From a virus (lineage: Duplodnaviria; Caudoviricetes): a stretch of DNA of 64,000 bases. Below the pieces are notes generated by a model, which worked only from the letters and a program-made list of their open reading frames with translations, ran no database searches and was not told where the DNA came from. A program made the position numbers and the translations under genes. Position 1 is the first letter of the stretch. Every line of letters begins with the position of its first letter. Location: positions 167,673-231,672 of IMG/VR virus record IMGVR_UViG_3300020048_000007; one strand, written 5' to 3'. Below, one piece after another: positions 5,911-47,078 of this stretch.

Positions 5911-6449
5911 GATGAACTAGACCAGGATGATTCAACAGGTACGTTTTGTTTAGAAACCCAGTAATGATATCTATCTTGACAAATACTTATTTCAAGGTCT
6001 CTAGAAGATGCTTCGACTGAAGCATTCTTCCTAAAATCAACTCCACCACAAACGCACACATTCTTAGAAATGCTATTTCTCCCACATTTTAAGCACACAT
6101 ATGGCTGTTTAGACATATTTACAGAAACTTTCCCGAAGACAGCATAATAATAAGCATCTGACAACACAAGATCTACACCTGTTAAACCACAAAAATGCTT
6201 CACAATGCCAGTCCTATTGTTCATACTAGAAGTATAAACATTAACGACTTCATCAGAAACACTTTCATAGCATGCGGCACAAAAGTCAAATGACTTCTCC
6301 GGTTTTTGCTGCAGTATATCTGTTATAGGTGGTCTCCTACCGCCATACTGCTTTACCTTCATCACATTCACACTATAATAATCAAAGTCTTCCTTATTCG
6401 TCGCTTTGCATATATCACATATTATTCCGGTTTGATCTTGCGTTTGCAT
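5907..6449 (-). CDS. Cys-rich hypothetical protein
   Basis: CDIC, CAAC, CLKC and CVCGG motifs; same operon as the DnaE C-terminal gene. Confidence 0.7.
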   Translation of the reverse strand: MQTQDQTGIICDICKATNKEDFDYYSVNVMKVKQYGGRRPPITDILQQKPEKSFDFCAACYESVSDEVVNVYTSSMNNRTGIVKHFCGLTGVDLVLSDAYYYAVFGKVSVNMSKQPYVCLKCGRNSISKNVCVCGGVDFRKNASVEASSRDLEISICQDRYHYWVSKQNVPVESSWSSSS

Positions 6450-9141
6450 CGGACTTTCTCTTAAGTTTCGATATCTTCTGACGTCTACTTACACAAAACA
6501 TACCCCTAGCATCGAAATCAACAGGAATATGAATTCCAATGCCAGGTTCAAAACACGCCTCATCCTGCATCATTAATTCCTTCTCCCATACAAACACCAT
6601 ACAATCAGCAATCCCATCAGTACCAAAAATCTTACCATAAGGTTTACCTGTCTTAGTCATATCCCTAACGAATTTGCTTGTATACAAATGTAAAAAATTG
6701 TTTCCTTCCTCCTTAGAAGCGCGATCCTTAGAAGCAGCTATGGTTCCATCACCGGTTATCTTATAAGAACCAAGCGGAGAATCAAGGTAATACCCAATAT
6801 ACTCCTGCTGGAAAGCTAATCTTTCTTCTAAAGTAAAATCGTCTAAAGTCACTTTATTAATATTTTCTAAAGTTACTTCGATTTTCGGCATCCATTTCGT
6901 TATCGCTGGTGGGATCTTATTACGTTTAGGATAGGCGCGGCGATACTCTTGCTCTTGGCGATCACGCTCCTTGGCAATCGTCTTCTCATCCCATCCTTCT
7001 AGAGCCATAAGGTCATTGTGAAGTTGCACTTTCATCTCTCTAATGTCTTTATTCACAGAGCAGTAAAAATACTGATAATACTTCCATAAAGCACGGCTGT
7101 TCTGATGTCCAGGCAATTGCTGGAAAGCATTTAACTTGATAAATCTTTCCAAAACAGGTTTACTCCTCCGGCCAGAATCTTCACCACCGACAAATTCATC
7201 AAGCGATTTATAATCACCCTTTCCAGTAAAAACCAAAGCGGCTGAATCACCAATGCCTTTAATACCAATCATGCCCTGATTAATACTGTCGCCAGATACC
7301 TTGAATCCACGCTGAAGATTATTTATATCAATAGTACCGAAGTGAACACCCTCGGCTGGAATGGCTGGTTTATGGCTCCCACTGTATGTGATTACCGACG
7401 GCTTCCATTCTTCAGACCTAGCCATGCCCATATATCTAGGCAACTTCTTGGCGTGGCAATCACTCATAATAGCAGCCCAAAACTCAGGTGCAAAGTGCGC
7501 CTTCAACCACAAGCATCTCATAGTCAGCAGGCAGTAACTCACACTATGTGATTTATTAAATGCATACCTGCCGAATGTTTCCATCTTCTCCCACCAGTAC
7601 GCAGCAGCTTCCTCACCAATAGACTTACCAGCACCTTCAAGCCATTTGGTCTTAATCGGCTTTAATTTGTGTGTCCACTTCTTAGCCACGGCCTTCCGAG
7701 CATCCTGTGATTCAGGACTAGTGAAAGCAGCAAGCCTCTGCCATAGTGCCTGTAACTGTTCTTGGTAAACAATAACCCCATAGGTGGACTCAAGAACAGA
7801 TAAAAACTCTGGGTGCAACTTCTCTTTCCATTTATTAAGACTATCATCGCGGTTAGCCATAGCCTCAGGAATTGATTGCATAGGACCTGGGTGGCCCATG
7901 GCATTTAAAAGCATTAAGTCTTCGAAAGACTTCACACCATGTTCTAAGATCCCTTTGCCATTATCTGTATCAAATTGAAATATGCCATCAGTCTTCTTAT
8001 CGTTCGCAAGCTTCAAAGCTGCTGGATCATCCATGTTTATAAAATGTTTTTCCCCGCTCTGATCGAAATAAAAGCCGATTATCCTTTGCTCTGGATCATT
8101 ATAATCCATTCCCTCCAGATTATCACCAAACGAAATCCCGCGATTTTCTTCGATAAACTTGCATGCCTCGAATAGGTACTTCACAGTCTTTAAACCAAGT
8201 AGATCCCATTTGACATAACCGAATTTGCTCAGCTGAGTGGTTCTTCCCTCGGTCCACATGCTTACCCAAAAGCCCTTCTTACCACTTTTCGCCATTGGAA
8301 CGTTCCCAAACAATGGCCTGTCAGTAATAATCAGAGCTCCCGCGTGCATCCCCTGATTCCTAATGCGGCCAACTAGCTGCTTGGCGTAGTCAACGACATT
8401 CGGGTGTATACGATATAATTCAGCAAGCTCTTTTACTTCTGCTAAGAGCTTACCAATGGTCGGGGCCTCAGTATCTGTCTGATTACAAAAAGGGCATATT
8501 TTCGCATCATGCACCTTTCCGCAATCTTGTTCAGCCCCTTCAATGATGATTCTACTTTTACAAACGGAAAACCCGCCTTCTCTCAGATCGTCGACTTCAT
8601 CAGGCATCTCAGTGGTGAAACGCTCTGCCTCATATCGTGTCATAACACCAAGTGCCGTAGACACGTCTAAAATCGCACTTCTTAACTTGTAGGTCTGCCA
8701 GGTCCCAACAGAGCAAACACTGCCATAAACATCATCGACGTTACTCCCATAACGCTGAATCGCATATTCCTTCAAAGGATCTCTAGATTCTGGGATACAA
8801 TCGATATCGATATCTGGCATGTCAGTATCTTTAGTGATATCTTCAGGATAATACCCATACTTGTTCTTGTAACTCATAACACTAGAAGCCGCAATGGAAT
8901 TAAGCATCGGCGTGGTCCGCTCATAGAACGGATCATCATCAGAAACACCCAACAGATACGCTATGAGAAGCCTATTTGGGTTTTTAAGCCCCTTTTGATC
9001 AGATTCAGCAACACGTATCCAGTATGCTTCTGTACCCTGTTTTTCAATCTCTGATATTTCAAACATCAATCTATCAACATACGTGCTGCCTAATGCTTTA
9101 CCTTTAGGTATTAACGTTTCTTTCATATCATTCCAGGTCAT
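6415..9141 (-). CDS. dnaE: DNA polymerase III alpha (family C), C-terminal/catalytic fragment
   Basis: MPDIDID catalytic motif, GRIRNQGMHAGALII, KWDLLGL, GIFQFD, TYGVIVYQEQ, ARKAVAKK, FGRYAFNKSHSVSY, FAPEFWAAIM, GIKGIG and an OB-fold remnant (QQEYIGYYL...GKPYGKIFG). No PHP domain. Confidence 0.95.
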   Translation of the reverse strand: MTWNDMKETLIPKGKALGSTYVDRLMFEISEIEKQGTEAYWIRVAESDQKGLKNPNRLLIAYLLGVSDDDPFYERTTPMLNSIAASSVMSYKNKYGYYPEDITKDTDMPDIDIDCIPESRDPLKEYAIQRYGSNVDDVYGSVCSVGTWQTYKLRSAILDVSTALGVMTRYEAERFTTEMPDEVDDLREGGFSVCKSRIIIEGAEQDCGKVHDAKICPFCNQTDTEAPTIGKLLAEVKELAELYRIHPNVVDYAKQLVGRIRNQGMHAGALIITDRPLFGNVPMAKSGKKGFWVSMWTEGRTTQLSKFGYVKWDLLGLKTVKYLFEACKFIEENRGISFGDNLEGMDYNDPEQRIIGFYFDQSGEKHFINMDDPAALKLANDKKTDGIFQFDTDNGKGILEHGVKSFEDLMLLNAMGHPGPMQSIPEAMANRDDSLNKWKEKLHPEFLSVLESTYGVIVYQEQLQALWQRLAAFTSPESQDARKAVAKKWTHKLKPIKTKWLEGAGKSIGEEAAAYWWEKMETFGRYAFNKSHSVSYCLLTMRCLWLKAHFAPEFWAAIMSDCHAKKLPRYMGMARSEEWKPSVITYSGSHKPAIPAEGVHFGTIDINNLQRGFKVSGDSINQGMIGIKGIGDSAALVFTGKGDYKSLDEFVGGEDSGRRSKPVLERFIKLNAFQQLPGHQNSRALWKYYQYFYCSVNKDIREMKVQLHNDLMALEGWDEKTIAKERDRQEQEYRRAYPKRNKIPPAITKWMPKIEVTLENINKVTLDDFTLEERLAFQQEYIGYYLDSPLGSYKITGDGTIAASKDRASKEEGNNFLHLYTSKFVRDMTKTGKPYGKIFGTDGIADCMVFVWEKELMMQDEACFEPGIGIHIPVDFDARGMFCVSRRQKISKLKRKSDANARSNRNNM

Positions 9142-9797
9142 ACATCTTCCTTTATCTGGATCTGATGGGCTGATTTGATGTGGTTTGTTAGGCCATAGCT
9201 GCTAATTGTCTTCTTACCACAGATGTGGCAAGCATATACAGTACCGTCAGTAGAAATCGGCTTAGCTTTGCAAGTTTTAGCATGCAAAGTATAACCAGAC
9301 ATGGAAGACATAATTTTTCCACAATTAGCACATTTCATGCCATCATTGCCTATAGCACACCCTATCATTTTCGATAATGGCTTTTCTCTATCCATTTCAT
9401 AACAAAGATCTGGTGGTCGCCATTCTTTATTCGATGGCCTGCCTGTAACCCAGCTCTCATGAATAGGAAGGCTCATTGAGTCTAAGTTAGCATCACTATC
9501 AGCGTATAGTATAGCATCAACTGCCCTTATTTTAACGTAGTATAATGGTCTTCCGTCTTTCACACAAGCTTTTAAGACGTCTTTGTACGCTTTATCATCT
9601 AACTCTATAATTTTCGATATCGTGGTTTTGTGAAGTATCAAGCCTCTATATTCTTCATATTTAAAATCGCTTTTTGCCCAGTATGGCCTTAATGATAGTA
9701 AAATGAGTATCTCTTTTAGACTCTTTTCTTCTCCATTAACATAGGTCTTATTGTTTTCTTCAGTGATTTTATAACCTTTGGGGTTCAAGTCTCGCAT
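9138..9797 (-). CDS. protein with two C-terminal C2H2/C2HC zinc fingers
   Basis: CANC-x12-H-x3-C and YACHIC-x12-H-x4-H; ATGA overlap with the DnaE-C start. Confidence 0.75.
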   Translation of the reverse strand: MRDLNPKGYKITEENNKTYVNGEEKSLKEILILLSLRPYWAKSDFKYEEYRGLILHKTTISKIIELDDKAYKDVLKACVKDGRPLYYVKIRAVDAILYADSDANLDSMSLPIHESWVTGRPSNKEWRPPDLCYEMDREKPLSKMIGCAIGNDGMKCANCGKIMSSMSGYTLHAKTCKAKPISTDGTVYACHICGKKTISSYGLTNHIKSAHQIQIKEDV

Positions 9798-10125
9798 TGT
9801 ATTTGTATTCTTGGTTTAGAGCAGCTGTTTTTGCCATATCTAACATTGAAATACAATCAGCACCCCACGTTATATCTGTTAAATCGATTCTTAGGTCGTT
9901 AGGATTATCAACGTTATATCTAATAGTAATATATGCATCTTTGTGCTTTAAAGCAGATTTAGCTAATTTAAAGCTCTTATAAATGTAATCTCCAGAGCCT
10001 AAACCTGATGTTATTACACATTCATTTTGGCTCTGGAGATGTTTTAGTCTGATAGCACAGCCATAAGAAGGTATCTTATCTTCGATGCATGCTATGCAGA
10101 TCTCGATATCATATAAATGAGCCAT
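9769..10125 (-). CDS. hypothetical protein (possible degenerate RNase H-like fold)
   Basis: The pattern YDIEICIAC...SYGCAIRL...ITSGLG...LAKSALK...ITIRY loosely follows RNase HI secondary-structure order but lacks the acidic catalytic residues. Confidence 0.5.
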   Translation of the reverse strand: MAHLYDIEICIACIEDKIPSYGCAIRLKHLQSQNECVITSGLGSGDYIYKSFKLAKSALKHKDAYITIRYNVDNPNDLRIDLTDITWGADCISMLDMAKTAALNQEYKYNARLEPQRL

Positions 10126-10633
10126 CGACAGCCACTAGCTTAGGATATTGGGAGCCCGTCTCAACCGCGAATGCATCGAGAGTACGAGCCACAGCATTTA
10201 AGACATGGTTTTTTGCAGCTATCTTATCGCTAGAACTACGCCACTTACCTATTTCGACAAGAACATTATCAGCTAGTTGCTTAACATTCGAAGGAAATTC
10301 TTTTCCTTCTGATTGATAATTGCTGACATAGCTATCGATGATTCCGGTCACGTATAATGCAGCTGATTCTGTGATATTGTAAGACAAATGGCTTATTTCT
10401 CTGTCTTTACGCTCTTGATTTGTATCTGTGATAAAGTCAATTAGCTTGAGCAAATAAGCACAAAGCTGATCACTAACGCCATTCATTATCACTATGTGCG
10501 TTCTGACAGCGTGCTTAAGCTCTTCGACCTGAGCATTGCGCCTGTCGCTATAATCTTCTTCAATGCCAGTTCTTATATCCGCTGGTGCCAAAGCCGTTGG
10601 CATGCTAACAGACTGCATTCTTGGATCGTTCAT
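10109..10633 (-). CDS. hypothetical protein
   Basis: 174-aa helical ORF with a GGAGG RBS (10638-10642 on the - strand). Confidence 0.7.
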   Translation of the reverse strand: MNDPRMQSVSMPTALAPADIRTGIEEDYSDRRNAQVEELKHAVRTHIVIMNGVSDQLCAYLLKLIDFITDTNQERKDREISHLSYNITESAALYVTGIIDSYVSNYQSEGKEFPSNVKQLADNVLVEIGKWRSSSDKIAAKNHVLNAVARTLDAFAVETGSQYPKLVAVDGSFI

Positions 10634-10672
10634 AGGTACCTCCTGCCATATTTACTTGCTACCTGCAAAAAA

Positions 10673-12067
10673 TCACTTAAATTCGGGTAGTTTTACATTC
10701 AGCAAATAGCCACCACGACTCGGACTCAAGAATCTGTCGAATGACAAACCCCATTTAAGCGGGTCAATGCTAGAGATTCCAAGCAGATAGCAAACCAAAC
10801 TCCCTGGAGCACTACCACGAGGATAAAACGGAAATCCTAGAGACCTCCCATGATCTATTAGGTCATATGTTATTAAAAAATAACTGCTAAAACCCTTCTC
10901 GATGAACCGAGTAAGTTCTATTCTGGCTTGCTCTGCATACGTCACAAGCTTGCCATCAACCGGGAACTTAGTCTTCACCTTATCTAAACCAAGTTCTTTG
11001 AGTCTCTTCGTCGCAATACGAATCAATTCTTGGTCTGACTGATCGACAGACGGAATCTTGGGCGTGGAGTCTACATTTAATTTAGAACATCTATTAGCGA
11101 TTTCTAGAGTATTATCACAAGCTTTCTGGAAAAACCCATCATCGATACCTTTGCTATAGCCATTATCAGTAAATCTCTCATGTAATTCCTCTCGGGTCTT
11201 CATGTACTGCTCATCACTATTAACGTGAAAAAGATCAGGGCTATCAACGGTTGTCTCCTGTGAAATAGCCATCATGATCTTCTGTAATATAAAATCCTTG
11301 CGGTGCATATAATGACAATCATTCGTGATCACCGACGGTACCTTGTAATGATCAGCAAGTTCAACCTGCCACCGAAAGACCTTCTCATCATTCTCGACCC
11401 CAGGCATTTGTAACTCCATAAAATAATCTTCGCCAAATGCGTCTTTGAATTTTTTTATATAAGCTGCGGCATCCCTAAAACACTCCTTAGAGCTTCTCTC
11501 CCAGACCACATTGTCCTCTTTATCCTTAATACTTCTGAATCTAAGCTCATGACTAACTGGTCCGTTTAAGCATCCAGAAAGAATGATTAATCCCTCTTTG
11601 TACTCACAAAGCTTCTCAAACCATATCCTGTTATACTGTGTAGTACCAAGTCCGAACAATCCTGTATCATAAGCCTGAGTAGTGAGCTTTATAAGGTTCT
11701 CGACACCAGTCTGATTCTTACATACGACAGTTAAATGCCTGTTCCGGAACATCCTTGCAGCGAGCTCTTGATTTTCTTTGCGCCATTCTGGAGATCGATA
11801 TTTAACACCATCCGCGTGCATTTTCTGTCTTAGCGGCTCATAATCATTATAATATATCTCACAACCGACTATACTCTTTAGACCGTATTGTTGAAACGCG
11901 ATGTACATGTCAGGGACACTACCCATATGACCATGCTCCGTAGCAGCCATAGCCGGATATCCAAGATTATGACACCTCTCGGCATATTGCTGCGGAGACG
12001 ATACCCCATCAAGAAAGCTGAAAATAGTATGAGCATGGAGATGGACAAAAGGAGCGTGCGATTGCAT
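10673..12067 (-). CDS. dnaE: DNA polymerase III alpha, N-terminal fragment (PHP domain + start of palm)
   Basis: FVHLHAHTIFSFLDG, ATEHGHM, IVGCEIY, RHLTV, LSGCLNG, TNDCHY and SDEQYMKT, then RGSAPGSLVCYLLGIS.IDP and FDRFLSPSR. It ends just before the PDxDxD motif, which is in the other gene. Confidence 0.95.
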   Translation of the reverse strand: MQSHAPFVHLHAHTIFSFLDGVSSPQQYAERCHNLGYPAMAATEHGHMGSVPDMYIAFQQYGLKSIVGCEIYYNDYEPLRQKMHADGVKYRSPEWRKENQELAARMFRNRHLTVVCKNQTGVENLIKLTTQAYDTGLFGLGTTQYNRIWFEKLCEYKEGLIILSGCLNGPVSHELRFRSIKDKEDNVVWERSSKECFRDAAAYIKKFKDAFGEDYFMELQMPGVENDEKVFRWQVELADHYKVPSVITNDCHYMHRKDFILQKIMMAISQETTVDSPDLFHVNSDEQYMKTREELHERFTDNGYSKGIDDGFFQKACDNTLEIANRCSKLNVDSTPKIPSVDQSDQELIRIATKRLKELGLDKVKTKFPVDGKLVTYAEQARIELTRFIEKGFSSYFLITYDLIDHGRSLGFPFYPRGSAPGSLVCYLLGISSIDPLKWGLSFDRFLSPSRGGYLLNVKLPEFK

Positions 12068-12147
12068 AGAAATGATCGTATCCCTAGTATCAATATTTTA
12101 TGACTATCAGAAAAACACAGGTACGCATAGATGAAATTCACCTATAT

Positions 12148-20475: not shown

Positions 20476-20669
20476 TATTTTACTTCACCTGGCATACATT
20501 TACCAAGCTTCGTATAGTATTCTGGATCTTCTTCTAGGTGATCCATAGCTATCTTTTTGGCCATTTTCGGATCAGAAGTATGCTCAAATTCGGTTTTGAT
20601 TCCTTTTTTGAGCTCTTCTGGATCGATTTTTGACAATGCTTCTTCGAGTCTAAGATTGAAAGCTGACAT
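20475..20669 (-). CDS. DUF5661-like small phage protein
   Basis: ELKKGIKTEFEHT...AKKIAMDHLEEDPEYYTKL matches the remembered motif; AGGAGAG RBS. Confidence 0.75.
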   Translation of the reverse strand: MSAFNLRLEEALSKIDPEELKKGIKTEFEHTSDPKMAKKIAMDHLEEDPEYYTKLGKCMPGEVK

Positions 20670-20690
20670 GTCTCTCTCCTGTAAATTATG

Positions 20691-22544
20691 TCAATCTTTT
20701 ATAGCGACCGTATGGTTTTCGGCCATCGCTACTTGTAACCAGCTAGATCCACCCATAATTGTCTGCACTGGAGAAGATTTTGATTCTGTCGTGTTATCCC
20801 CTAACTGACCATACCCATTATCTCCCCAAGTCCACAGTGTGCCATCAGATTTAATACCAGCAGAACTAGTACCAGAAGTCGAAGAATACTTCCAATTCCC
20901 AGCGGTCATCACCTGGACCGGATTAGACCTATTTTCAGTTGTGTTATCACCAAGACCTCCACCATTGTTATTGCCCCAAAGCCATAACGTACCGTCGGTT
21001 TTTATAGCAGACATGGATATATAATAAATGGTATCTGCACCACCACACGCTACAGACTTCCAATTTGTACCACCAAGCGAGGTTTGAACTGGCGATGAGC
21101 GATTTCTGAAAGAGCCACCGCCAGAAGCCCTGTTATTGCCCAACTGCCCAGAAAAGTTCCCACCAACCGTCCACAATGTTCCATCAGCCTTAACTGCCGC
21201 CATATTATCAGTACAAGCAGCTACTTGAACCCAGTCGCTACCTCCGCTGATCGTCTGAACAGGAGAACTTTTGTCAACAGTAGAATCATCACCAAGACTT
21301 CCAGAGCGATTATTGCCCCATGCCCATAACGTACCATCAGTCTTGATAGCAGCAGTACCCCACCTGCCACAAGCTACCTGCGACCAATTACTGCCACCAG
21401 TAATGGTCTGGACGGGAGAGCTCCTATACTCTGTTGTGCCATCGCCGATCTCACCATAATAATTCAAGCCCCAAGCCCACAAAGTGCCATCGGTCTTTAT
21501 AGCCGCAGCATGAAAAGCATCTACTGAAACTTGCTTCCAGCTAGAACCCATATCGTCAAAAATTCGTACTGGTTCTAAAACTACGCCTTCAAAAAATCCC
21601 TGTGCCCACATAGTTCCATCAGCTTTAACAGCCAGGTCGCGAGCACCATAAATATCAAAATTACTAATGAAACCAGTAGAAGCCTGCTTCCAAGTATCGC
21701 CACCAAGCGAAATCTGGACCGGAGATGAATTTGGATTGATCAATTCATAAGAATTCCGACCCCAATACCACAAAGAACCAGATTGCACCACCACAGTAAT
21801 ACTAAAAGCCTTCTCCGTAGTTGACCCACCCTGATCAGTAGAACGCACACGAACCGTGTAACTGCTCTTAATAGCTAAACTAAAGACCTCATCAGCAAGC
21901 AGATTAGCACCATCAATAGTAAATGAAGCATTGTCAGTATCGCCAGTACCAGCCACCAGAGTGTACGTGAACGTATCACCAGCATCTGGGTCGGTAGTAG
22001 AAAGCGTTCCAACCACCGCACCAACTAAATTGTTCTCAGCTATTGTTGCTGATGAAAGTAGAATATCGGTTGGAGAACTATTTAGAACTGCGACCTCGCT
22101 AACAGAGCTCACGGACTGTAAAGCATCTGTAATAGCACCGCTAGCTACAGGATCAGCAAGCAAAGCATAAAAATTTGTCTTCCCATCTAAATCATTAAAG
22201 CTTCCATTTCTATACTGAACACAATAGTAACCACTAGTCTCATCATCATAAGTAACAATACCACTAATATCCATCCACCAATCAGAAATCGTTTTATCTA
22301 TAACAGGAGCAGATACAATAAAATTCAGATACTTCCCATCTGGAGATCCAAGAGTGAGTAACTCCTGAAGAGAATCAACCACATCAGATTCGTCAGTATA
22401 AAGCTGACTAAAATTAATATTGCTTTCTGATTCAAATGGGCTAGAGATGACACCGTTTGAGTAAGTCGTTTCAAATGGACCACTTGTCCCATCTGTGTAT
22501 GCCGCGACGCCAGAGATTTTGAACGTGAACGATGTAACAGACAT
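20691..22544 (-). CDS. adhesin-like protein: conserved N-domain + cadherin-like domain + RCC1/BLIP-II beta-propeller
   Basis: PTDILLSSATIAEN...LSTTDPDAGDTFTYTLV...VRVRSTDQGG (cadherin), then about 7 repeats of KxDGTLWxWGxNxxGxLGD...SSPVQT. Confidence 0.85.
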   Translation of the reverse strand: MSVTSFTFKISGVAAYTDGTSGPFETTYSNGVISSPFESESNINFSQLYTDESDVVDSLQELLTLGSPDGKYLNFIVSAPVIDKTISDWWMDISGIVTYDDETSGYYCVQYRNGSFNDLDGKTNFYALLADPVASGAITDALQSVSSVSEVAVLNSSPTDILLSSATIAENNLVGAVVGTLSTTDPDAGDTFTYTLVAGTGDTDNASFTIDGANLLADEVFSLAIKSSYTVRVRSTDQGGSTTEKAFSITVVVQSGSLWYWGRNSYELINPNSSPVQISLGGDTWKQASTGFISNFDIYGARDLAVKADGTMWAQGFFEGVVLEPVRIFDDMGSSWKQVSVDAFHAAAIKTDGTLWAWGLNYYGEIGDGTTEYRSSPVQTITGGSNWSQVACGRWGTAAIKTDGTLWAWGNNRSGSLGDDSTVDKSSPVQTISGGSDWVQVAACTDNMAAVKADGTLWTVGGNFSGQLGNNRASGGGSFRNRSSPVQTSLGGTNWKSVACGGADTIYYISMSAIKTDGTLWLWGNNNGGGLGDNTTENRSNPVQVMTAGNWKYSSTSGTSSAGIKSDGTLWTWGDNGYGQLGDNTTESKSSPVQTIMGGSSWLQVAMAENHTVAIKD

Positions 22545-29862: not shown

Positions 29863-30073
29863 TGTATTTATCAATTATTACGACGGTACTACAGAGGAGT
29901 CATTTCAACTGTTGGCTCATACACCAAAGGTAGTGCCGAAAAGTAATAAGAATTTGGTCCATAAAGTACCAATACATGAAATACCAGCGGCACCAGACAA
30001 TCAAATCGAAGAAATTTCTACCCTACCTATAGTATATAGGCTAGGTGACGACTATGAAGGCGAGAGAATAACA

Positions 30074-33586: not shown

Positions 33587-34468
33587 ATGGGTTTTCATTC
33601 GAACGATGATTTTGAACATCATAATATACTTGGCAACAAAGTAAGAAGAAATAAGACAACCATTATAATAAATGAGGAAATTACCTCTAATAATTGGGAA
33701 AGATGGTATCTGCTGCGATCAGATGCCCACCATGATAACGGTCATTGTCGACGTGATCTTGAAAAAGAGCATTTAGATGAAGCTAAAGCCAAGGATGCGA
33801 TAATCTGTGACTTTGGTGACCTATTTTGCGTCATGCAGGGGAAATATGACCCTCGCAAAGATGCAAGAGCATTAACTGAAGAGCAGCATGGTAGAGAGGA
33901 CTATCTGAATTGCGTCTTAGAAGAGTCATACAAATTTTATAAGCCATACAAAGATAACTTCTTGATGCTTAGCCCCGGCAATCATGAAACCAACATATTG
34001 AAGAGATGCGGGGTCGATCTCACCAAGCTGTTATCAAAAGAACTTGATGCTTTTAACCAGACGTATACTGGTTGGATAAAATTCATGTTTAAAAGACGTG
34101 GCTTTGTCGTGAGCAAGAATCTCTGGTATCACCACGGATATGGTGGCGGCGGGATGATGAGCTTTGGTACTCTTTCAACAAGACGTCAGGCGAGTTATCT
34201 TCCAGATGCCGACATTATGGTTTCTGGTCACACGCATGATAGCTATTTTCTTGAAATGGCTAAAGAAAGACTTGACAAGAATGGCAAGATAGCCAGAAGC
34301 ATCTTGACATCAATAAGAAGTCCAGGGTACAAAGACGAATCATCCTGTAAAGAGGGATGGGCAGCTGAAAGAGGCCATCCGCCGAAGCCATTGGGTGCTT
34401 GGTGGTTAAGATTTAAATATTCTGAATCTAAAGGGCTCAAATACACAGCTATCAAAGCCGGTGAATAA
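33587..34468 (+). CDS. calcineurin-like metallophosphoesterase
   Basis: SDAH, GDLF, GNHE, HHG and GHTH motifs; GGAGG RBS. Confidence 0.85.
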   Translation: MGFHSNDDFEHHNILGNKVRRNKTTIIINEEITSNNWERWYLLRSDAHHDNGHCRRDLEKEHLDEAKAKDAIICDFGDLFCVMQGKYDPRKDARALTEEQHGREDYLNCVLEESYKFYKPYKDNFLMLSPGNHETNILKRCGVDLTKLLSKELDAFNQTYTGWIKFMFKRRGFVVSKNLWYHHGYGGGGMMSFGTLSTRRQASYLPDADIMVSGHTHDSYFLEMAKERLDKNGKIARSILTSIRSPGYKDESSCKEGWAAERGHPPKPLGAWWLRFKYSESKGLKYTAIKAGE

Positions 34469-34505
34469 TTGGGTTCTGCAGTATTATTAACTGCAGGAGA
34501 CCCAC

Positions 34506-36290
34506 ATGCTAGAAATACAAAATGTAAGCTGGCGTAACTTTATGAGTTACGGCGAAGAAACATCGAGCCTAGACCTGTCAGAGCTAGGGCAGGTTTTAAT
34601 AACAGGCGAAATCGAAGACGAAACACAAGACGGTTTAAAGAAAAGCAACGGATCGGGAAAATCAACCATCCCAAACGTAATCCTATGGGCATTATTCGGG
34701 CGCACAATGCACTCGGCTAATCCAGGGGATGCCGTGATAAACCATTTTATTGGCAAAGACTGCTGGGTTAAAATAACGTTAAAGAACGGCGATAGTATAA
34801 CCAGAACACGAGGATTAAAAGGCCACAACGAGCTACTCTATACAAAGAACGGCGAAGAAAATACACTTAGCACAAATAAAAACTTACAGCAATTATTGAA
34901 TAAAGACTTACAGTTAGATTGGGAGTTATTCACAAGCTCAGCGTTTTTCACACAATATAGCAAATCATGGCTAGAAATGGCAGACAATAACAGGAAGAAA
35001 GCACTAGAGAGAATCCTGAGAGTCGATAGGTTTACATTCTACGCTACAGCTGCAAAATCAAGCGCAGAAAAAGTCGACGCTAAGCTGTCAAAAATTAATA
35101 TCAAAATCGAAAGCGCTAAAGCCAGAATCGCCAAGGCCACCACACAAATCGAAAGAAACACACAATTAAGAGATAATTTCGAAGGCAGTAAAACCGACAG
35201 AATGCGATCAATACAGACATCAGTAGACGTAAACCAGCAGAAAGCTGATGCTATAAAGATACCAGACTTGGATAAAATAACACAGATTTGGGAGGTCTAT
35301 ACCAAAATTAGTGATAAGATAGAAGCGATGAAGAATGACCAAAACGACATTCTTCGCAAGACAAAGTTAGTCGAATCGACGATAAATGATTTAAAGTCCA
35401 AGGCATCCTCATGGAAGAACAAGAAAGGCAAGCAGTGCCTGTCTTGCATGCAAGACATAGATGAAAGCCACATTCAACAGCACATTGAGCCATTGATTAA
35501 CCAACAAGCGACAGAAGAAGCTACCTTGAATGGCCTATTAGCGGAAAAAAGCAAATTAACGCAAAATATATCAGCCACGGAATCTAAGCTCGCTGAACGA
35601 AAGCCAAAGGTAACACTAAGAGAAGCAAAATCGATAATTGATGAAAAAAATCAATTGCTAAAGTTAATAAACAGAGATCTAGAGCACATTACAAAGATAG
35701 AAAATGAGCAGAACCCGTACACGTCGAGCTTAGATGACTTAGAAAATTCGATAATAGAAGACCAAACCATAATAACTGATTCAACACAGGAGAAGGAGCA
35801 ACAAGAATTACTATATAGGCATTACACATATCTTAGTAAAGCATATTCAGAAAGAAATAAAATTAAAAGCTACGTCTTTAAAGAGCATATCCCTTTCATC
35901 AACCAGAGACTGAACCACTATTTGGACATGTTGAATCTGGACATTAAGGTCAATTTAACTGAAAATCTGGGTTTAGACAGCAATATGTGGGGTTATGATT
36001 TTCAGTCTGGTGGAGAGAGGAAACGCACGGATGTGGCGTTCATGCTCGCTGCCTTTGACTTTCATGAGGCGATGTACGGCAGACAGTGCAATGTTCTGGT
36101 CTTAGATGAGGTGGATGGTCGCATGGATGATGATGGTATAGACGGGCTTATCAATATAATTAAGCAAGAATTATCCAGGAAGGCTGAAACGATCTTAATC
36201 ATATCACATAGAAACCAAATGCATGATGTGTTTGATAAGGAAATTAAAGTGACTAAGTCTAATAATTATTCCAAAATAAGGCAGATGTAA
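34506..36290 (+). CDS. sbcC: Rad50/SbcC/T4 gp46-like SMC ATPase
   Basis: WRNFMSYG, NGSGKST, a coiled coil with zinc hook CLSC, QSGGERKR signature, LVLDE and ISH. Confidence 0.93.
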   Translation: MLEIQNVSWRNFMSYGEETSSLDLSELGQVLITGEIEDETQDGLKKSNGSGKSTIPNVILWALFGRTMHSANPGDAVINHFIGKDCWVKITLKNGDSITRTRGLKGHNELLYTKNGEENTLSTNKNLQQLLNKDLQLDWELFTSSAFFTQYSKSWLEMADNNRKKALERILRVDRFTFYATAAKSSAEKVDAKLSKINIKIESAKARIAKATTQIERNTQLRDNFEGSKTDRMRSIQTSVDVNQQKADAIKIPDLDKITQIWEVYTKISDKIEAMKNDQNDILRKTKLVESTINDLKSKASSWKNKKGKQCLSCMQDIDESHIQQHIEPLINQQATEEATLNGLLAEKSKLTQNISATESKLAERKPKVTLREAKSIIDEKNQLLKLINRDLEHITKIENEQNPYTSSLDDLENSIIEDQTIITDSTQEKEQQELLYRHYTYLSKAYSERNKIKSYVFKEHIPFINQRLNHYLDMLNLDIKVNLTENLGLDSNMWGYDFQSGGERKRTDVAFMLAAFDFHEAMYGRQCNVLVLDEVDGRMDDDGIDGLINIIKQELSRKAETILIISHRNQMHDVFDKEIKVTKSNNYSKIRQM

Positions 36291-36315
36291 AAATAAAGTA
36301 ACTAGTGAGAAAAAT

Positions 36316-36858
36316 ATGGAATCTACAGACTTAGAAAAAATCAGACACGTTTCAAACACAGATGTTGTTCGTAAACTCCTGATTAGATATTTTATTGACA
36401 AAGGGTTTGAGAACAGTTTTGATAGGCAAGTATATCCGTCTAATCTACAAGATATGACTGCAGTCATTCCGATATTATCAAGTAAAATAGAGATAGTCCC
36501 CCATTGCGTTGATATTGATACAGCATTGGGAAGAGCAGTCCTAGGTTGGAACCTATTTGTGTTAGGTGATCATAGAATGTATATCGGTGAGACATATCAT
36601 AACAATTTACATGATTTGGCAAGACAAATCAAGAACGGTATGCTATCTAACACAGATCAGTTTGAAGGTCAAGCCACTCGGACGACGACTCCAAGAAAAA
36701 TAATCACTTTTGTTTGTAGGGTCTTCGGTGACCATAAATCTGGCTACATCGACCTTAGTCCGACTAACAATGTTAAACAGCCCGGCGACGCTTTTGTCGC
36801 TAAGCAAACTATGAATGCTGTACCAGGCCAGTTCTTTGGGCGTTCTGGGTACGGTTAA
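36316..36858 (+). CDS. hypothetical protein
   Basis: 180-aa ORF. Confidence 0.7.
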   Translation: MESTDLEKIRHVSNTDVVRKLLIRYFIDKGFENSFDRQVYPSNLQDMTAVIPILSSKIEIVPHCVDIDTALGRAVLGWNLFVLGDHRMYIGETYHNNLHDLARQIKNGMLSNTDQFEGQATRTTTPRKIITFVCRVFGDHKSGYIDLSPTNNVKQPGDAFVAKQTMNAVPGQFFGRSGYG

Positions 36859-36946
36859 GAATCTAAAACGGATATTTAATCCTATCTTGTATATACCGAA
36901 TATGAGCCAGCTTCGCATGTACACCTCGTCATAGAAGATCAAAAAG

Positions 36947-37834
36947 ATGATCCATCCCGACACAGGCTATCATTATATCCACGTCATAAGTGACTGCATG
37001 TCCTTCGTTGATGTATACAAAAGCTACCAAAACCTCGCTCAAGAAACGCCATATATGACCACCATAAGTTTAAGAGATTTTAGAGAAAACCCCACTGGCT
37101 TACTTAATGACCCGAACAACGTAATCATAATCTGGCATGACGATAGACTCATCACAAAAGATAGAAAATGCAAAGCGATAATACGCTATTCAGAAATGGT
37201 AACAGAGAACGAAAACATAGGTCATCAAAAAGAACTACTAGATGACTATAAAGCCCATATAGATAACTATGACTACACAATAGTTCATTCAAAATCTGCA
37301 GAAAAACACATTAAAAACTTTACAGATAAAGTAACATACCTCCCAGTTGGGTTTGATCCCCTAATATACGGTACACCAGAATTCGACATTCCAAAAAGAT
37401 TCGACCTCATAACATTTGGCTCGAACCTTGGTAGGAGAATTCAGATAAACGATAACCTTAAAAAGCATTTTGGCGACAGGTTTCTAGAAACATCCTGCTG
37501 GGATATAGGTAGAAAACAGCTATTGGAACAAAGTAGAATCAACTTAATCATACCATGGTGCAAAAACCCATCATTTCCTGCATTCAGGATGCTTCAGACA
37601 CTAGGAACATCAGCAGCCATGTTAACAGAAAAAACCAACTCGCACCCAGCAAAGCCGAACAAACACATTATTCATATAACAGACTTTGATAACGAAACGC
37701 TTACAAACCAAGAGATAGAAAACGCCCTCACCAAAGACCTTACAGCTATTTCAAAAAAAGCCCACGAAGACCTGACGATAACAACCAGAGAAGTAATGAA
37801 CAAACTCGTCAAATTAACAAAAAAACACCTATGA
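36947..37834 (+). CDS. glycosyltransferase (GT-B, CgeB/Glyco_trans_1_2-like)
   Basis: YLPVGFDP, FDLITFGS...RR, QSRINL and RMLQTLG...MLTE. Confidence 0.7.
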   Translation: MIHPDTGYHYIHVISDCMSFVDVYKSYQNLAQETPYMTTISLRDFRENPTGLLNDPNNVIIIWHDDRLITKDRKCKAIIRYSEMVTENENIGHQKELLDDYKAHIDNYDYTIVHSKSAEKHIKNFTDKVTYLPVGFDPLIYGTPEFDIPKRFDLITFGSNLGRRIQINDNLKKHFGDRFLETSCWDIGRKQLLEQSRINLIIPWCKNPSFPAFRMLQTLGTSAAMLTEKTNSHPAKPNKHIIHITDFDNETLTNQEIENALTKDLTAISKKAHEDLTITTREVMNKLVKLTKKHL

Positions 37835-41368: not shown

Positions 41369-41427
41369 GTTTTGCCCTTTATTATAAGTAAAGAGCCCTT
41401 TTGTGTGGGCTCTTTACTTATAATTAT

Positions 41428-42717: not shown

Positions 42718-42792
42718 TTGTTACCTCCATGGTTGTGTGATTACCACTGCCGTATTTGAGAACAGACAATCCTTTTTGGCAGGAGATCCGCC

Positions 42793-43554
42793 ATGGCTCA
42801 GTATTGCGACACGAAGAAACTCGAAAAGGTCTGGTTTAACTGGCTTCTATCCAAATCAGCACCCACGCTGGAGCCATACAGGAAAGCGGGTGTGTTGTGG
42901 ACTAAAGCCATAGGTCTCGTCGATGTGAAGGGTGAGGTGATTGTCAAAGGTGGTAAGACCTTCAAAAGTCCTACACATCCTATCAGATCGCACTGTATCT
43001 TGTCAAGATATCCGTTCTTTTTTACCACTTTTAATGGTAAGCCACAAGAACTTGCGTCCCAAATACATTATAACGAACATGGTGATTATACGACAACCCC
43101 CATTGCACTTTCAGAGATAGAAATAGTAAAAACCAAGCCGGAAATAAAAGACATAGAACAGATACTACTAAAAGATGGCTACATCCTAGATGCAGAAACA
43201 GGAAAAAGCTGGGAGTCCATGTTAATAGACATCAATAAAATGTGCCTCGGAATAGCATCTAAATTTCATCAAAAAACAGCAGAAGAATTGAATGATTTAG
43301 CTAACGAAGCATTATTGCAAGTAGCTAACAAATTATCTACAGATAGGCTGGTATATACTCCCGGAAGGGCACCAGTATTCAATTTATTAACCACCACTAT
43401 ACATCGATGCATGTTTTCAATTATGAATAAAAGGAAAAATCAAAGAGAAGGGCTTAACAGATTACTGCAAGACGCACAATCTGGGTCATTACCTCAAACT
43501 AACAGAAGCCTGAGACTCCAAACATTCACGACGAGAAAACATGAAAATCGTTAG
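42793..43554 (+). CDS. T4 gp55-like (late) sigma factor
   Basis: QYCDTKKL at the N-terminus and DLANEALLQV...YTPGRAPVFNLLTTTIHRCMFSIMNKRKNQ, paralleling gp55 region 2 (F.YFTQI...AF...I.KEK). No region 4. Confidence 0.6.
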   Translation: MAQYCDTKKLEKVWFNWLLSKSAPTLEPYRKAGVLWTKAIGLVDVKGEVIVKGGKTFKSPTHPIRSHCILSRYPFFFTTFNGKPQELASQIHYNEHGDYTTTPIALSEIEIVKTKPEIKDIEQILLKDGYILDAETGKSWESMLIDINKMCLGIASKFHQKTAEELNDLANEALLQVANKLSTDRLVYTPGRAPVFNLLTTTIHRCMFSIMNKRKNQREGLNRLLQDAQSGSLPQTNRSLRLQTFTTRKHENR

Positions 43555-44482
43555 TAACAAACACATTGTGCCAGCGGTAACAAAAAAACCAATTGACAAT
43601 ATCAAAATAGTAGTTAGTCCCCATAATAAAACTATAAGCACACTAAATGCTTATAATCAATCAGCCCATTTGAAAGTAATCCCAGCACAAATAGCACCGC
43701 AGATAAAAAACAAAGCAGTCATAGATAAAAGCCTAGTAAAAAGAACTCAAAACCCAAATAAACCAAAACCACCAGCATCGGTAACTTACGCTTCCGGCGA
43801 AGCACCAATCGAAAGCATACCCAAAATATACGGTATTAAAGACATAGGTAAAGGTAAGACATTAGTAGTCATAGCAAACGGTCCAAGTATAAACGAAATT
43901 GAATTGGAGAGACTAAAAGATAAGCCAGGCATCGATACCCTATCAATAAACAGACCGGACCCACGGGTCTGGCCAACAACATATTGGTCATTTTACGACC
44001 AATCACAGCTTGTGCGACACGAAGACCTGTATAATTATTATGAAGGCATCACCTTTCTTAGCACAGCCATCAAGAGAGACAAGGCCAGAAGCATAAAGTT
44101 CAAAAATTTTGGCAAAAAACAATTTAGCAGAGACTTAACAAAGGGATTATGTATAGGACGCACTAGCTGTTATGCTGCTATGCAACTTGCTTTATGGATG
44201 GATTACGATAAGATATTCTTCTTTGGGGTTGATATGCACCCAGATGGTATTGACGGTAAGCTCCATTTCTACGGGACAAATCCCGACGTAGACCCTGATA
44301 TTAGGAAAAAACGATTTAACTCAGAAGCAGAATACTTCGAATTTGCCGCAGATAACATGGAATACCAAGAGAGAAAGAGATTTCACTTTTGTTCGTCTTA
44401 CCTGACATGGCCCTTTAAATCGCGTTTCAATTACTTAGATCACAAGACTGCTATAGACGTGATTTTAGGGTCAATGCTATGA
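43541..44482 (+). CDS. DUF115/Maf-like glycosyltransferase-related protein
   Basis: LVVIANGPSI, TLSINR and AMQLALWMDYDKIFFFGVDM after a low-complexity N-terminus. Confidence 0.7.
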   Translation: MKIVSNKHIVPAVTKKPIDNIKIVVSPHNKTISTLNAYNQSAHLKVIPAQIAPQIKNKAVIDKSLVKRTQNPNKPKPPASVTYASGEAPIESIPKIYGIKDIGKGKTLVVIANGPSINEIELERLKDKPGIDTLSINRPDPRVWPTTYWSFYDQSQLVRHEDLYNYYEGITFLSTAIKRDKARSIKFKNFGKKQFSRDLTKGLCIGRTSCYAAMQLALWMDYDKIFFFGVDMHPDGIDGKLHFYGTNPDVDPDIRKKRFNSEAEYFEFAADNMEYQERKRFHFCSSYLTWPFKSRFNYLDHKTAIDVILGSML

Positions 44483-44490
44483 TTTGACTA

Positions 44491-44877
44491 ATGTATTATA
44501 AAACCATGAGATACTACATAGCATCTAGTTTAGACAATGTTGCCAATGTTCGTAACGCCATTATGAGGTTGACCGAAGCTGGGTTTAGTGTCACACATGA
44601 TTGGACAAGACACGGCAGGATCACAGACCCATCACAGTATCAAGCCATTGGCGAAGCGGAATATCAAGGCGTGATTGATGCAGATTTCATCGTGTTCTTT
44701 ATGCCGACTAGGTATGGAAGCCACGTTGAATTCGGTATAGCACTAGCCTCTAACAAACCGATTTATATGATCACGAACGGCGTGGAATTTGAAGAAAAAA
44801 CATTCTATCATCTACCATCCGTACATAGATACAGCGATTTAAATGAACTATTGCGCGAATGGGGAATAGACATATGA
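44491..44877 (+). CDS. nucleoside 2-deoxyribosyltransferase / nucleotide N-hydrolase-like protein
   Basis: YYIAS, DW, GVIDADFIV and GSHVEFG.ALA..KPIY (catalytic Glu motif). Confidence 0.8.
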   Translation: MYYKTMRYYIASSLDNVANVRNAIMRLTEAGFSVTHDWTRHGRITDPSQYQAIGEAEYQGVIDADFIVFFMPTRYGSHVEFGIALASNKPIYMITNGVEFEEKTFYHLPSVHRYSDLNELLREWGIDI

Positions 44878-45578
44878 GTGGAAGCGTATCAACTAAGCTC
44901 GAATTAGACGTAATGCAAGTCAATGAATTGCTTGAAGCAAGCGAGCTAATGTCTCAACATACGCTACCAGCCATGGTTATACATCCTGGCTTGGCCCCAG
45001 ACGCTTACGCAGCACGGATGAGAGTCAGAGGCAGGTACAAAATAATCATCCCTATTGATTGGCCAAAAGGCGAAAATTTTTCAAACTTGAAATTCAGGGG
45101 ACTGAGTAAGCAAGCATTGGAAGCTGATGGGTTCGAGATAATGGTCACGCCAGGTAAGACCCTTCTAGATACAAAAAATGAAATCAATGTTCTGACTGAA
45201 TTCATCAGGAACTTTCTGGGGGAATATGTGGAGGTTCGGTTTGTAATAGGCAATACTATTAAAACCGACGAGGAAATTGAAGTAATATGCAATGCCTTGT
45301 TAGGTATGAGGAACCCCACATTGTTGCGTAGCGATACTATCTTGAAAGTACAGCAAAATGTCATCAGTTCAGAGTCGCATCTAGCTTTTGTTAATAAGCT
45401 ACGCGGCTTTGGTCTTCCCACACCTATAAAGCTATCGGGGAATATGAATAACCTTAAATCTATCGCTTCAGCGCCAGCAGTTTTCAGGTATGCTGTCAAT
45501 GTCACACAAGCCAAGAATATTATTCGAGAGATCTTGCAGCAGCCCAGTGAATTGAAGGAAATCCTGTCCGACGTTTGA
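44859..45578 (+). CDS. DeoC (deoxyribose-phosphate aldolase)-like TIM barrel, catalytic Lys apparently replaced
   Basis: IDWPKG, ADGFEIMV, VRFVI, LLRSDT and IKLSGN align in order with DeoC (GFPLG, GADEIDMV, VKVII, FVKTST, VKASGG); Arg sits at the Schiff-base Lys position. Confidence 0.5.
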   Translation: MGNRHMSGSVSTKLELDVMQVNELLEASELMSQHTLPAMVIHPGLAPDAYAARMRVRGRYKIIIPIDWPKGENFSNLKFRGLSKQALEADGFEIMVTPGKTLLDTKNEINVLTEFIRNFLGEYVEVRFVIGNTIKTDEEIEVICNALLGMRNPTLLRSDTILKVQQNVISSESHLAFVNKLRGFGLPTPIKLSGNMNNLKSIASAPAVFRYAVNVTQAKNIIREILQQPSELKEILSDV

Positions 45579-45588
45579 GAATGACAAT

Positions 45589-45978
45589 ATGATACACGAT
45601 CATCTAATGGAAGCAATCAGGCAAGACGCCGACCTATTGACTAAATCCGATGCGTGGCTCGAAGAAGAGAAGAATTACTTCACAGAGCAGATGCGCAAAT
45701 CCATAGAAGAGCTCAAACCCATCCTCTTAGCTATAGCTATAAAACAGAAATTGCAGCAGCAGAACATGGTGCCTAGGCAGAAGTTCATAAGAGGCAGCAC
45801 AGGCCAGATAGAGAACGTTGTGATTGACTTCTGTAAGCTACCAGAAGCACTGAGAGATATGCTCAATAACGGCAGAGATACCTTAGATCAGTTGATAGCA
45901 GCTGGCAATATTGCCACATGGCAAATAGACGGGTATGACGTTAATACCTGCCTCCAAACGGTACCGAAAGGGATATAA
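45589..45978 (+). CDS. hypothetical protein
   Basis: 129 aa; TAATG stop/start overlap with the PurZ-like gene. Confidence 0.7.
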   Translation: MIHDHLMEAIRQDADLLTKSDAWLEEEKNYFTEQMRKSIEELKPILLAIAIKQKLQQQNMVPRQKFIRGSTGQIENVVIDFCKLPEALRDMLNNGRDTLDQLIAAGNIATWQIDGYDVNTCLQTVPKGI

Positions 45979-47078
45979 TGCAAAACGGCAAGCTCAATAT
46001 AGTCACAGACGGACAACACGGTAGCACAGGCAAGGGTCTAATCAACGCATATCTAGCCGATAAACACCGACCAGAAATACTCAGCACGACCAATATGGCC
46101 AACGCTGGCCACACCGCAGTCAACGAAAACGGCGAACCGTTCATAGCAAAAGCATTACCGTCATCAGCGGTCCTAAACAAATGGCGAGAGGGCTATAAAC
46201 CGACAGTATTCGTAGGAGCTTCATCTGCTTTTGATCTGCAACAGCTACTAAAAGAATGGAAAGAATGCGACAAGCCATTCACATTAATCCACCAGAGAGC
46301 TGGTGTCATTACACAAGAGCAAAAAGAAAGAGAATCCGGAGCATCAGGCACAAAGCACGTTGCTAGCACCATGCAAGGATGTGGAGCATTTCTAGCAGAT
46401 AAAGTCATGCGAAAAGCAGATTTAAAACTCGCTAGAGATTATGAAGAGCTTCAGCAATTCATGGCCATCAAAGAAGCACATACATGGCTAAAGGCACAGC
46501 TCGAAAGCTACGGTACAATTCTCCATGAAGGAAGCCAAGGATTCAGCTTAGATATAAGCCACGGTAGTCACTATCCAGAGTGTACAAGCCGCAGCACCAC
46601 TGCTATTCAAAACCTTGCTGATCTTGGTCTTAACCACAAGCAAGTTGGTGATGTGTACGTGGTTTTCCGGCCATACCCGATCAGAGTCGGCAATGTCTAT
46701 GAAAATGGGGTAGAAGTAGGCAACAGCGGTGGTTGCTACGGCGACAACCAAGAGACTACTTGGGAAGCAATAGCCGATGCTGCAGGTGCACCGCCAGAGA
46801 TTAAAGCCAAGGAGCTTACAACTGTCACAAAGCGACTTCGAAGGGTCTTCACGTTTAGTATGCAGCAAATCACCGAAGCTGCTGCAGCTAACGGTGCATC
46901 ATATCTTGCGCTGAATTTTGCTAACTATATTGACTGGACTTGCTATGGCACCAACGACAAGGCAAAATTGTCAAGCAAGATTTGGGAATTCATTCATTCA
47001 GTACAAGAGCAAACAGGCGTCAAGGTGGGGCTTGTTGGTACGGGTCCTCAGATAAACCACGTAATTGACCTAAGATGA
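45978..47078 (+). CDS. purZ: adenylosuccinate synthetase homologue with PurZ (2-amino-dAMP-succinate synthase) signatures
   Basis: DGQHGSTGKG (Ser at the PurA Asp13 position), NAGHT, ASTMQGCG, EGSQG, YPECTSR, RPYPIRVGN, SGGCY, TTVTKRLRRVFTFS and LNFANY (in place of the PurA TKLD/TMLD GTP-specificity motif). Confidence 0.8.
   Translation: MQNGKLNIVTDGQHGSTGKGLINAYLADKHRPEILSTTNMANAGHTAVNENGEPFIAKALPSSAVLNKWREGYKPTVFVGASSAFDLQQLLKEWKECDKPFTLIHQRAGVITQEQKERESGASGTKHVASTMQGCGAFLADKVMRKADLKLARDYEELQQFMAIKEAHTWLKAQLESYGTILHEGSQGFSLDISHGSHYPECTSRSTTAIQNLADLGLNHKQVGDVYVVFRPYPIRVGNVYENGVEVGNSGGCYGDNQETTWEAIADAAGAPPEIKAKELTTVTKRLRRVFTFSMQQITEAAAANGASYLALNFANYIDWTCYGTNDKAKLSSKIWEFIHSVQEQTGVKVGLVGTGPQINHVIDLR

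Follow-up and report, generated by a model that had tools for sequence, protein, structure and literature searches.

The DNA examined here, referred to as the window, is a 64,000-nucleotide stretch forming the final 64 kb (contig positions 167673-231672) of the 231,672-bp linear IMG/VR virus contig IMGVR_UViG_3300020048_000007, which is 64% complete according to CheckV. It carries purZ, encoding a PurZ-type succinoaminodeoxyadenylate synthetase of the kind found in phages that replace adenine (A) by 2,6-diaminopurine (Z), together with a family C DNA polymerase, DnaE, encoded as two separate halves. The phage is a member of an abundant freshwater clade of jumbo phages with genomes of 350-410 kb when complete, and the co-occurrence of PurZ with a family C polymerase is real, conserved across this clade and, within the searchable literature, undescribed. 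The explanation we favour, with a probability of roughly 0.55, is that PurZ acts as a portable module for editing the nucleotide pool: the replicase belonging to each lineage would accept dZTP, and the split DnaE would replicate the genomes of the jumbo clade. As part of this explanation, the pairing of PurZ with DnaE more probably reflects shared descent within the lineage than a specific adaptation of the polymerase. To our knowledge, the phages with Z genomes are small siphoviruses and podoviruses whose polymerase is either a family A enzyme (DpoZ) or a PrimPol. The searchable literature, which did not include the three Science papers of 2021 on PurZ and DpoZ, yielded no report of PurZ in connection with DnaE, Pol III or jumbo phages.

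The identity of the 366-aa PurZ (45978..47078, plus strand) was assigned using family and structure matches, residue motifs and a tree. The protein matched the adenylosuccinate-synthetase family PF00709 (3.4e-29), phrog_1211, annotated as '2-aminooxy adenylosuccinate synthetase' (2.6e-61), and the PurZ structures of phages S-2L (7odx, 1.9e-40) and phiVC8 (6fko, 3.4e-40); archaeal PurA structures matched about equally well, the PDB matches overall ranging from 1e-40 to 1e-43. Alignments were read against the list of specificity residues in bioRxiv 10.1101/2025.10.22.683976. The catalytic Asp of PurA is replaced by Ser (S14 in phiVC8) within the motif GQHGSTGKG, and all clade members have GS at this position, as opposed to the GD of separate PurA-like copies. 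The motifs TTVTK, PIRV and NFANY (NFxNY) are also present and are common to all relatives, so that the residues equivalent to S14, T262, F295 and Y298 are the same as in the phiVC8 and S-2L systems. The sole mark that differs is the position of phiVC8 F12, occupied by His in the window protein and by W, F or A in its relatives. In a maximum-likelihood tree of 29 sequences, which left out archaeal PurA, the window clade grouped with the phiVC8 and S-2L PurZ proteins with moderate support (84/89), apart from the PurZ0 of Arthrobacter phage Wayne and from the Asp-type PurA-like copies. Judged by its sequence, the window gene is a member of the PurZ family that carries every mark tested.

These data also bear on a reading in which the PurZ homologue does not bring about genome-wide replacement of A, but serves partial substitution, purine salvage or manipulation of the pool while ordinary polymerases copy the genome. 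The variation at the F12 position (H, W, F or A) is compatible with it. Five relatives (G014, G025, G026, G037 and G038; G labels designate the virus records compared, G000 being the contig of the window) encode two adenylosuccinate synthetases, one Ser-type and PurZ-like, the other Asp-type and PurA-like, and in the alignment the latter has GD and is devoid of TTVTK and NFxNY. This second gene, like the PurB gene of the cultured phage MaF61 described below, suggests a broader purine metabolism. Against this reading, the residues reported for the use of dGMP and ATP are all kept across PurZ sequences that have diverged to 30-60% identity. We regard it as possible but doubtful; further evidence on both sides is given with the helper genes and the cultured phages.

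The distribution of the genes was analysed using two sets of relatives. A protein search with PurZ returned 2224 homologues at E<=1e-10, the best 120 of which all reach 55% identity or more, on contigs of up to 408 kb; 13 viral contigs with PurZ relatives at 54-63% identity, the largest of 356 kb, made up the first set. A search with the N half of DnaE gave the second set of 39 loci, 31 of their records being new. PurZ, the split DnaE and a family A polymerase-like protein (PolA-like) encoded elsewhere in the contig were all three present in each of the six near-complete relatives (G005, G014, G015, G026, G033 and G038). Across the 13 PurZ-relative contigs, DnaE was found in 10, the three without it being fragments of 30-75 kb, and the PolA-like gene in 8. 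In the second set, PF00709 matches occurred in 14 of the 31 new records and, of the six with a completeness of 90% or more, in five; the sixth, G043, encodes an unsplit 1187-aa DnaE that is 25% identical, and neither PurZ nor the PolA-like protein. The PolA-like gene was present in 17 of 20 further records, missing solely from three distant ones. Co-occurrence of split dnaE and purZ across related phages, proposed in an earlier sequence-only reading of the window as a test of a link between them, was therefore borne out as co-inheritance (6/6 near-complete genomes). Nevertheless, the relatives form one lineage with a single evolutionary origin, so the correlation between PurZ, split DnaE and PolA-like protein cannot show a functional link.

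The DnaE halves lie on the minus strand. The N half (10673..12067, 464 aa) contains the PHP domain (PF02811, 2.2e-34) and the first palm segment with a PRGSAPGS loop (PF07733, positions 3-98), and ends just past FLSPSR. The C half (6415..9141, 908 aa; PF07733, PF17657, PF14579) begins with an extension of about 105 aa, followed by the catalytic palm, the fingers and the HhH domain. The extension contains a weak repeat of the palm helix that precedes it (LIAYLLGVSDDDP versus LVCYLLGISSIDP); downstream of it are DMPDIDIDC, GMHAGA and KWDLLG, including the three catalytic Asp residues, and a Cys-rich insert is also present. The set of family C signatures (PHP, palm with three catalytic Asp, fingers, HhH) is complete but spread over two proteins. 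Since the PHP domain and the GS-loop palm segment reside in one and the catalytic Asp residues in the other, the active site needs both. Among PDB entries, 5lew, a PHP-proofreading DnaE1, matched the N half best (1.3e-50), and at each of the positions presumed to be the metal ligands of the PHP exonuclease the window protein has the same residue as 5lew. Compared with a DnaE1-type Pol III alpha of this kind, the residues at the PHP ligand positions, the GS loop, the three catalytic Asp, the fingers and HhH are alike, whereas the window enzyme is encoded by two genes with three open reading frames (ORFs) between them, the break falling immediately ahead of the catalytic DxD strand, and its C half has gained the 105-aa extension and the Cys-rich insert.

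The N half is 58-68% identical in relatives, and the C half 42-56% identical in those with full-length copies. One of the three intervening ORFs, encoding 174 aa (10109..10633, minus strand), has no Pfam or PHROG match; its homologues (29-40% identity) occupy the same place between the two halves in most relatives examined. Most of them keep the order N half, 174-aa ORF, C half, and some show further splits or insertions the size of an intein. The other two ORFs (118 aa and 219 aa; 9138..10125, minus strand), the longer of which has a zf-C2H2 match (1.5e-6), are only patchy in relatives and are probably what is left of a mobile insertion. The possibility of a split intein at the break was rejected, as no intein-like termini were seen by eye and the two halves are 58 kb apart in relative G002. 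In some relatives the C half is further divided into separate ORFs (L149:5560-9345, L142, L143, L144), and that of G033 has an intein-sized insertion of about 390 aa. These extra cuts and the G033 insertion suggest repeated invasion of the DnaE gene by mobile elements.

The sequence-only reading had gone further and suggested that this DnaE could be a Z-accepting or Z-selective polymerase, if Z is incorporated, with the duplicated and altered palm segment as the place where selectivity may have evolved. Acceptance of Z by a family C enzyme is to be expected rather than surprising: in Escherichia coli expressing the Z-cluster of S-2L, 3.9% of A in chromosomal DNA was substituted by Z, and most polymerases are said not to discriminate (PMC8342488). 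Selectivity, which could operate through the remodelled palm or through PHP proofreading with preferential removal of the weaker A:T pair, is very unlikely in our view. No DatZ-type dATPase was found, so other means of excluding A would be needed if replacement were complete, and the match of the PHP ligand positions to 5lew makes a backtracking mechanism such as that proposed for DpoZ (PMC8599892) conceivable. At one DnaE site the closest relatives have GMHAGA and the more distant members GKHAGG, yet this K-to-M change does not track PurZ, as the GKHAGG members also have it. There is no comparative signal for the palm segment either: the split and the extension are common to the whole clade, leaving no PurZ-less sister for comparison. 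Furthermore, PurZ-type genes occur with a differently built DnaE and with a family B polymerase (PolB) in the cultured phages described below, and the indifference of most polymerases to Z (PMC8342488) argues in the same direction.

Besides the split DnaE, no other ORF in the window matched a polymerase family, and in this sense the earlier description of DnaE as the only polymerase was correct. It does not extend to the phage, because the contig encodes two more. The first is the PolA-like protein (contig 165072-166277, minus strand; 401 aa; PF00476, 48.5 bits), located 1,396 bp before the window and devoid of an exonuclease. The second is a compact, 559-aa DnaE-like protein made of palm and fingers only (contig 85913-87592, minus strand; PF07733, 136.9 bits). 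It carries GSASCS, DIDLD and KIDLL with an intact catalytic DxD, has no PHP or C-terminal domains, and has a homologue (40% identical) in 1 of the 13 PurZ relatives, G009. Neither PolB nor Prim-Pol was found in G000 or the six near-complete relatives, and no DpoZ-type PolA in G000 and five of these six, the sixth having been tested for PolB and Prim-Pol only. Searches by tblastn and phmmer with the DpoZ proteins of phiVC8 and Wayne, S-2L PrimPol, DatZ and MazZ gave no match, and the S-2L-type set was likewise absent by profile (no PF09250 for PrimPol, no PF12917 for DatZ). A search of the whole contig, in line with the genome search that had been called for, revealed no dpoZ, PrimPol or PolB but did reveal two further polymerase genes, and the association of PurZ with a family C polymerase rather than with DpoZ or PrimPol holds in the contig, in the six near-complete relatives and in the cultured phage vB_BpsS-140.

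The PolA-like protein is probably a second, accessory polymerase. It is 35-42% identical in relatives, and none of 50,697 cultured-phage records matched it. In nine sequences, motif A (DWxxAD), GRSK..NIQG, the Arg and Lys of the O-helix and QGSxAHAM are invariant, and motif C reads HDS instead of HDE throughout. At what we take to be the O-helix Phe and Tyr positions lining the nascent base pair (Taq numbering), all nine have Leu and Asn, respectively. The predicted model has a Pol I fold (predicted local distance difference test, pLDDT, 82.7) and matches KlenTaq, Klenow, the apicoplast polymerase, Pol nu and Pol theta; its N-terminal part, modelled as alternating strands and helices, may be RNase H-like. 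The exonuclease DxE motif is not conserved (FN in G000), D93 being the sole invariant acidic residue in the first 100. No phmmer or tblastn match to phiVC8 DpoZ or Wayne DpoZ-1 was obtained, and its profile, run against a set of 16 sequences, gave these two DpoZ proteins E values of 0.02 and 0.09. On sequence criteria, the protein has a family A domain, is without the exonuclease residues of DpoZ and is not a member of the phiVC8- or Wayne-type DpoZ subfamily. A 402-aa gene beside purZ of vB_BpsS-140, considered as a homologue, was rejected: it showed no similarity and encodes a DnaQ/ExoX-like exonuclease.

Could the PolA-like protein nevertheless be a Z-adapted polymerase, a third independent solution of the DpoZ kind, with DnaE serving bulk or other synthesis? 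It is present in every PurZ clade member and absent from three distant PurZ-less phages with DnaE, and in the complete genome G005 its gene lies 9 kb from purZ. The catalytic motifs A and C and the O-helix Arg/Lys are invariant within a Pol I fold in which the residues lining the base pair are replaced in all nine sequences, and both known DpoZ groups are family A enzymes (PMC8599892). However, these two groups keep the exonuclease DxE (PMC8599892) that is missing here, and similarity to either of them is not significant. A small polymerase without proofreading suits repair or gap filling, its neighbours being UvsY-like, 5'-3' exonuclease and RecA genes, and vB_BpsS-140 has PurZ without any PolA. 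We therefore consider this proposal quite unlikely, and return to the explanation in which the pool-editing module works with the resident replicase.

This explanation is consistent with the gene content of two cultured phages. Among the same 50,697 records, the best match of the window PurZ was Bacillus phage vB_BpsS-140 (MH884512; 40% identity), whose PurZ is also Ser-type. The complete 55-kb genome of this siphovirus encodes a 363-aa PHP protein and an 852-aa DnaE as the only polymerase, along with a DnaG-DnaB primase-helicase, and no PolA, PolB, Prim-Pol or DatZ was found in it. The two genes are listed as dnaE_1 and dnaE_2 in PMC6375668 (Table 3); both ORFs are missing from the retrieved feature table, the loci of interest being L003 (MH884512) 22027-23148 and 33885-37492. 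The two-gene DnaE is shared with the window phage, but the split falls between PHP and palm rather than inside the palm, the sequence is about 25% identical and there is no C-half extension. Moreover, a DnaQ-like exonuclease gene and an HNH gene adjoin purZ, and the NDT-like/DERA-fold operon of the jumbo clade described below is absent. DraI failed to cut vB_BpsS-140 DNA (PMC6483233) despite at least 17 TTTAAA sites in 40 kb of the genome, circumstantial evidence for modified A that also counts against a PurZ without genome-wide replacement. The second, Flavobacterium phage MaF61 (PQ858689), a cultured phage of 168 kb from a lake in Finland, carries a Ser-type PurZ-type gene (GSSGKG, TTLTK, NFVNY; L152:11959-13302), a family B polymerase and a PurB-like gene, with no DnaE and no PolA. 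When published cases with family A enzymes and PrimPol are counted as well, four polymerase families are found beside PurZ-type genes. Streptomyces phage Spocter, considered as a further case of PurZ with DnaE, was set aside since it has an ordinary PolA, dUTPase and PurB set.

The window purZ is part of a block (42793-48487) that is syntenic in 13 relatives' loci and encodes, in order, proteins of 253 and 313 aa, an NDT-like protein of 128 aa, a DERA-fold protein of 239 aa, a 129-aa protein, PurZ, a 259-aa TIM barrel and a 140-aa protein. The first two genes (42793..44482, plus strand), which have a weak MptE-like match, lie upstream of the NDT-like gene in 12 loci. The NDT-like protein (44491..44877, plus strand; PF05014, 1.7e-5) is of the nucleotide N-glycosidase or deoxyribosyltransferase type and belongs to the same superfamily as DmtZ. 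Its gene is kept near purZ in 12 of the 13 loci, its family profile matches the BlsM, MilB and NDT structures (9e-6 to 1e-3), and a Tyr, an Asp and the Glu of GSHxELG are invariant. The DERA-fold protein (44859..45578, plus strand), kept in 13/13 loci, had no sequence-level match and none in the protein atlas; it was recognised using an AlphaFold model (pLDDT 82.7) and Foldseek, all top PDB matches being DERA (E 5e-11, template modelling score 0.69-0.79). K191 in PIKVSGN on strand 7 is invariant, and strand 6 has an invariant Arg157 followed six residues later by Lys163; we presume that in DERA itself the Schiff-base lysine sits on strand 6 and a second lysine on strand 7.

The remaining members of the block are less informative. 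The 129-aa protein directly upstream of purZ (45589..45978, plus strand) is kept in the loci of 8 relatives and has no match by sequence, in the protein atlas or, by profile, in the PDB; a MazG-like assignment was dropped because there is no invariant Glu and hence no EExxE-type motif. The 259-aa protein, a TIM barrel like xylose isomerase and AP endonuclease 2 (47075..47854, plus strand; PF01261 7.4e-7, below the Pfam cut-off), overlaps the purZ stop codon and is kept downstream of purZ in relatives.

Helper enzymes of the known Z systems were searched for in the same genomes. Neither DatZ (YfbR-like) nor DUF550 was found in G000 and five near-complete relatives, the DUF550 search being a weak negative as it had no working positive control. 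MazZ was absent from G000 and five of the six near-complete relatives, and among the genomes searched for MazG (G000 and five relatives) a match was found in G033 only. Dropping such helpers lowered substitution in E. coli (PMC8342488), and their absence here agrees with a PurZ that does not sustain complete replacement. dUTPase-family genes are present in all six near-complete relatives, in two copies in five of them, and G000 encodes a 372-aa thymidylate kinase-dUTPase fusion (contig 20528-21646, plus strand).

The window clade therefore differs from the phiVC8 and S-2L systems, with which its PurZ groups, by the absence of DatZ, MazZ, DUF550, a DpoZ-type PolA and PrimPol, by a split family C replicase, by genomes about 10 times larger and by different operon partners. 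It bears some resemblance to the PurZ0 systems of Wayne and of Gordonia phage Ghobes (PurZ0, DutZ, DmtZ and DpoZ-1; PMC12884076): both are without DatZ, both have an NDT-superfamily gene beside the synthetase, and dUTPase-family genes are present in the window clade. Unlike in those systems, the synthetase falls with PurZ and there is no DpoZ-1; the NDT-like protein has no detectable sequence kinship with Wayne DmtZ (E 0.17), and a DERA-fold partner has not been described there. In PurZ0 phages the NDT-like DmtZ hydrolyses dAMP, alongside the dUTPase-like DutZ (PMC12884076), and the resemblance of the window operon to this set argues against mere salvage. One of the dUTPase-family copies could be a DutZ-like dATP/dGTP hydrolase, and the purZ block may be a new module for dAMP disposal and Z salvage that replaces DatZ and MazZ. 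A route from dATP to dAMP, then to adenine and deoxyribose phosphate, and on to breakdown of the latter is a reasonable inference.

We hypothesize that PurZ would turn dGMP into the precursor of dZMP and that host enzymes would complete dZTP. The split DnaE, acting as the replicase, would then incorporate dZTP opposite T, as polymerases generally do not reject it. Residual adenine would be set by editing of the dNTP pool, not by the polymerase, the candidate enzymes being the NDT-like and DERA-fold pair and the dUTPase-like enzymes rather than DatZ and MazZ. Several observations weigh against this proposal. No enzyme that removes dATP was identified, which leaves full replacement of A unproven, and the invariant Arg at the presumed strand-6 Schiff-base position leaves the chemistry modelled for the DERA-fold protein uncertain. 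The Asp-type PurA-like gene of some relatives indicates a purine metabolism more complex than a simple Z pathway. The PolA-like enzyme could be the Z-related polymerase, and no beta clamp gene was detected, a further difference from DnaE1-type Pol III alpha. Finally, several large ORFs in the window had no match of any kind, and G000 is only 64% complete. A more ambitious version, in which the whole 350-410 kb freshwater clade is Z-substituted and replicated by a two-subunit family C enzyme, with A excluded through dAMP cleavage by the NDT-like protein, removal of deoxyribose phosphate by the DERA-fold protein and a dUTPase-like dATP hydrolase, and with DnaE or the PolA-like protein preferring Z, is unlikely as a whole.

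The jumbo lineage, its family C replicase and its new helper genes would, as far as gene content can tell, represent a variant of the Z-genome system. If PurZ is active, Z-DNA would extend to giant phages with genomes about 10 times larger, in hundreds of sequence clusters in freshwater metagenomes, as well as to a family C replicase and to different helper enzymes. Together with the family B case, these findings point to PurZ being a portable module able to work with any replicase, which moves the question of how A is excluded away from the polymerase and towards regulation of the nucleotide pool. It can be tested in two cultured phages, vB_BpsS-140, where PurZ stands with DnaE alone, and MaF61, where a PurZ-type gene stands with PolB. 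Useful parts for synthetic biology would be a family C replisome able to copy Z-DNA naturally and a putative module for destroying dAMP. 2,6-diaminopurine deaminated at C6 yields guanine; one idea from this chemistry is that a Z genome would add Z-to-G changes to the C-to-T changes on exposed strands.

The replication context of the window is found at its start, where the 3' portion of a DnaB-like helicase gene, whose complete ORF matches DnaB_C at 7.2e-17, and recA (RecA, 1.2e-99) occupy positions 1..2292 on the minus strand; immediately before the window, this region carries on into the genes for the PolA-like, UvsY-like and 5'-3' exonuclease proteins. Elsewhere, the window encodes two beta-propeller proteins, RCC1 (20691-22544) and DUF5122 (22611-24476), a 479-aa actin-like protein (29720-31159, plus strand) matching the Pfam family Volactin (4.6e-37), and a giant ORF of 4606 aa (48525-62345).

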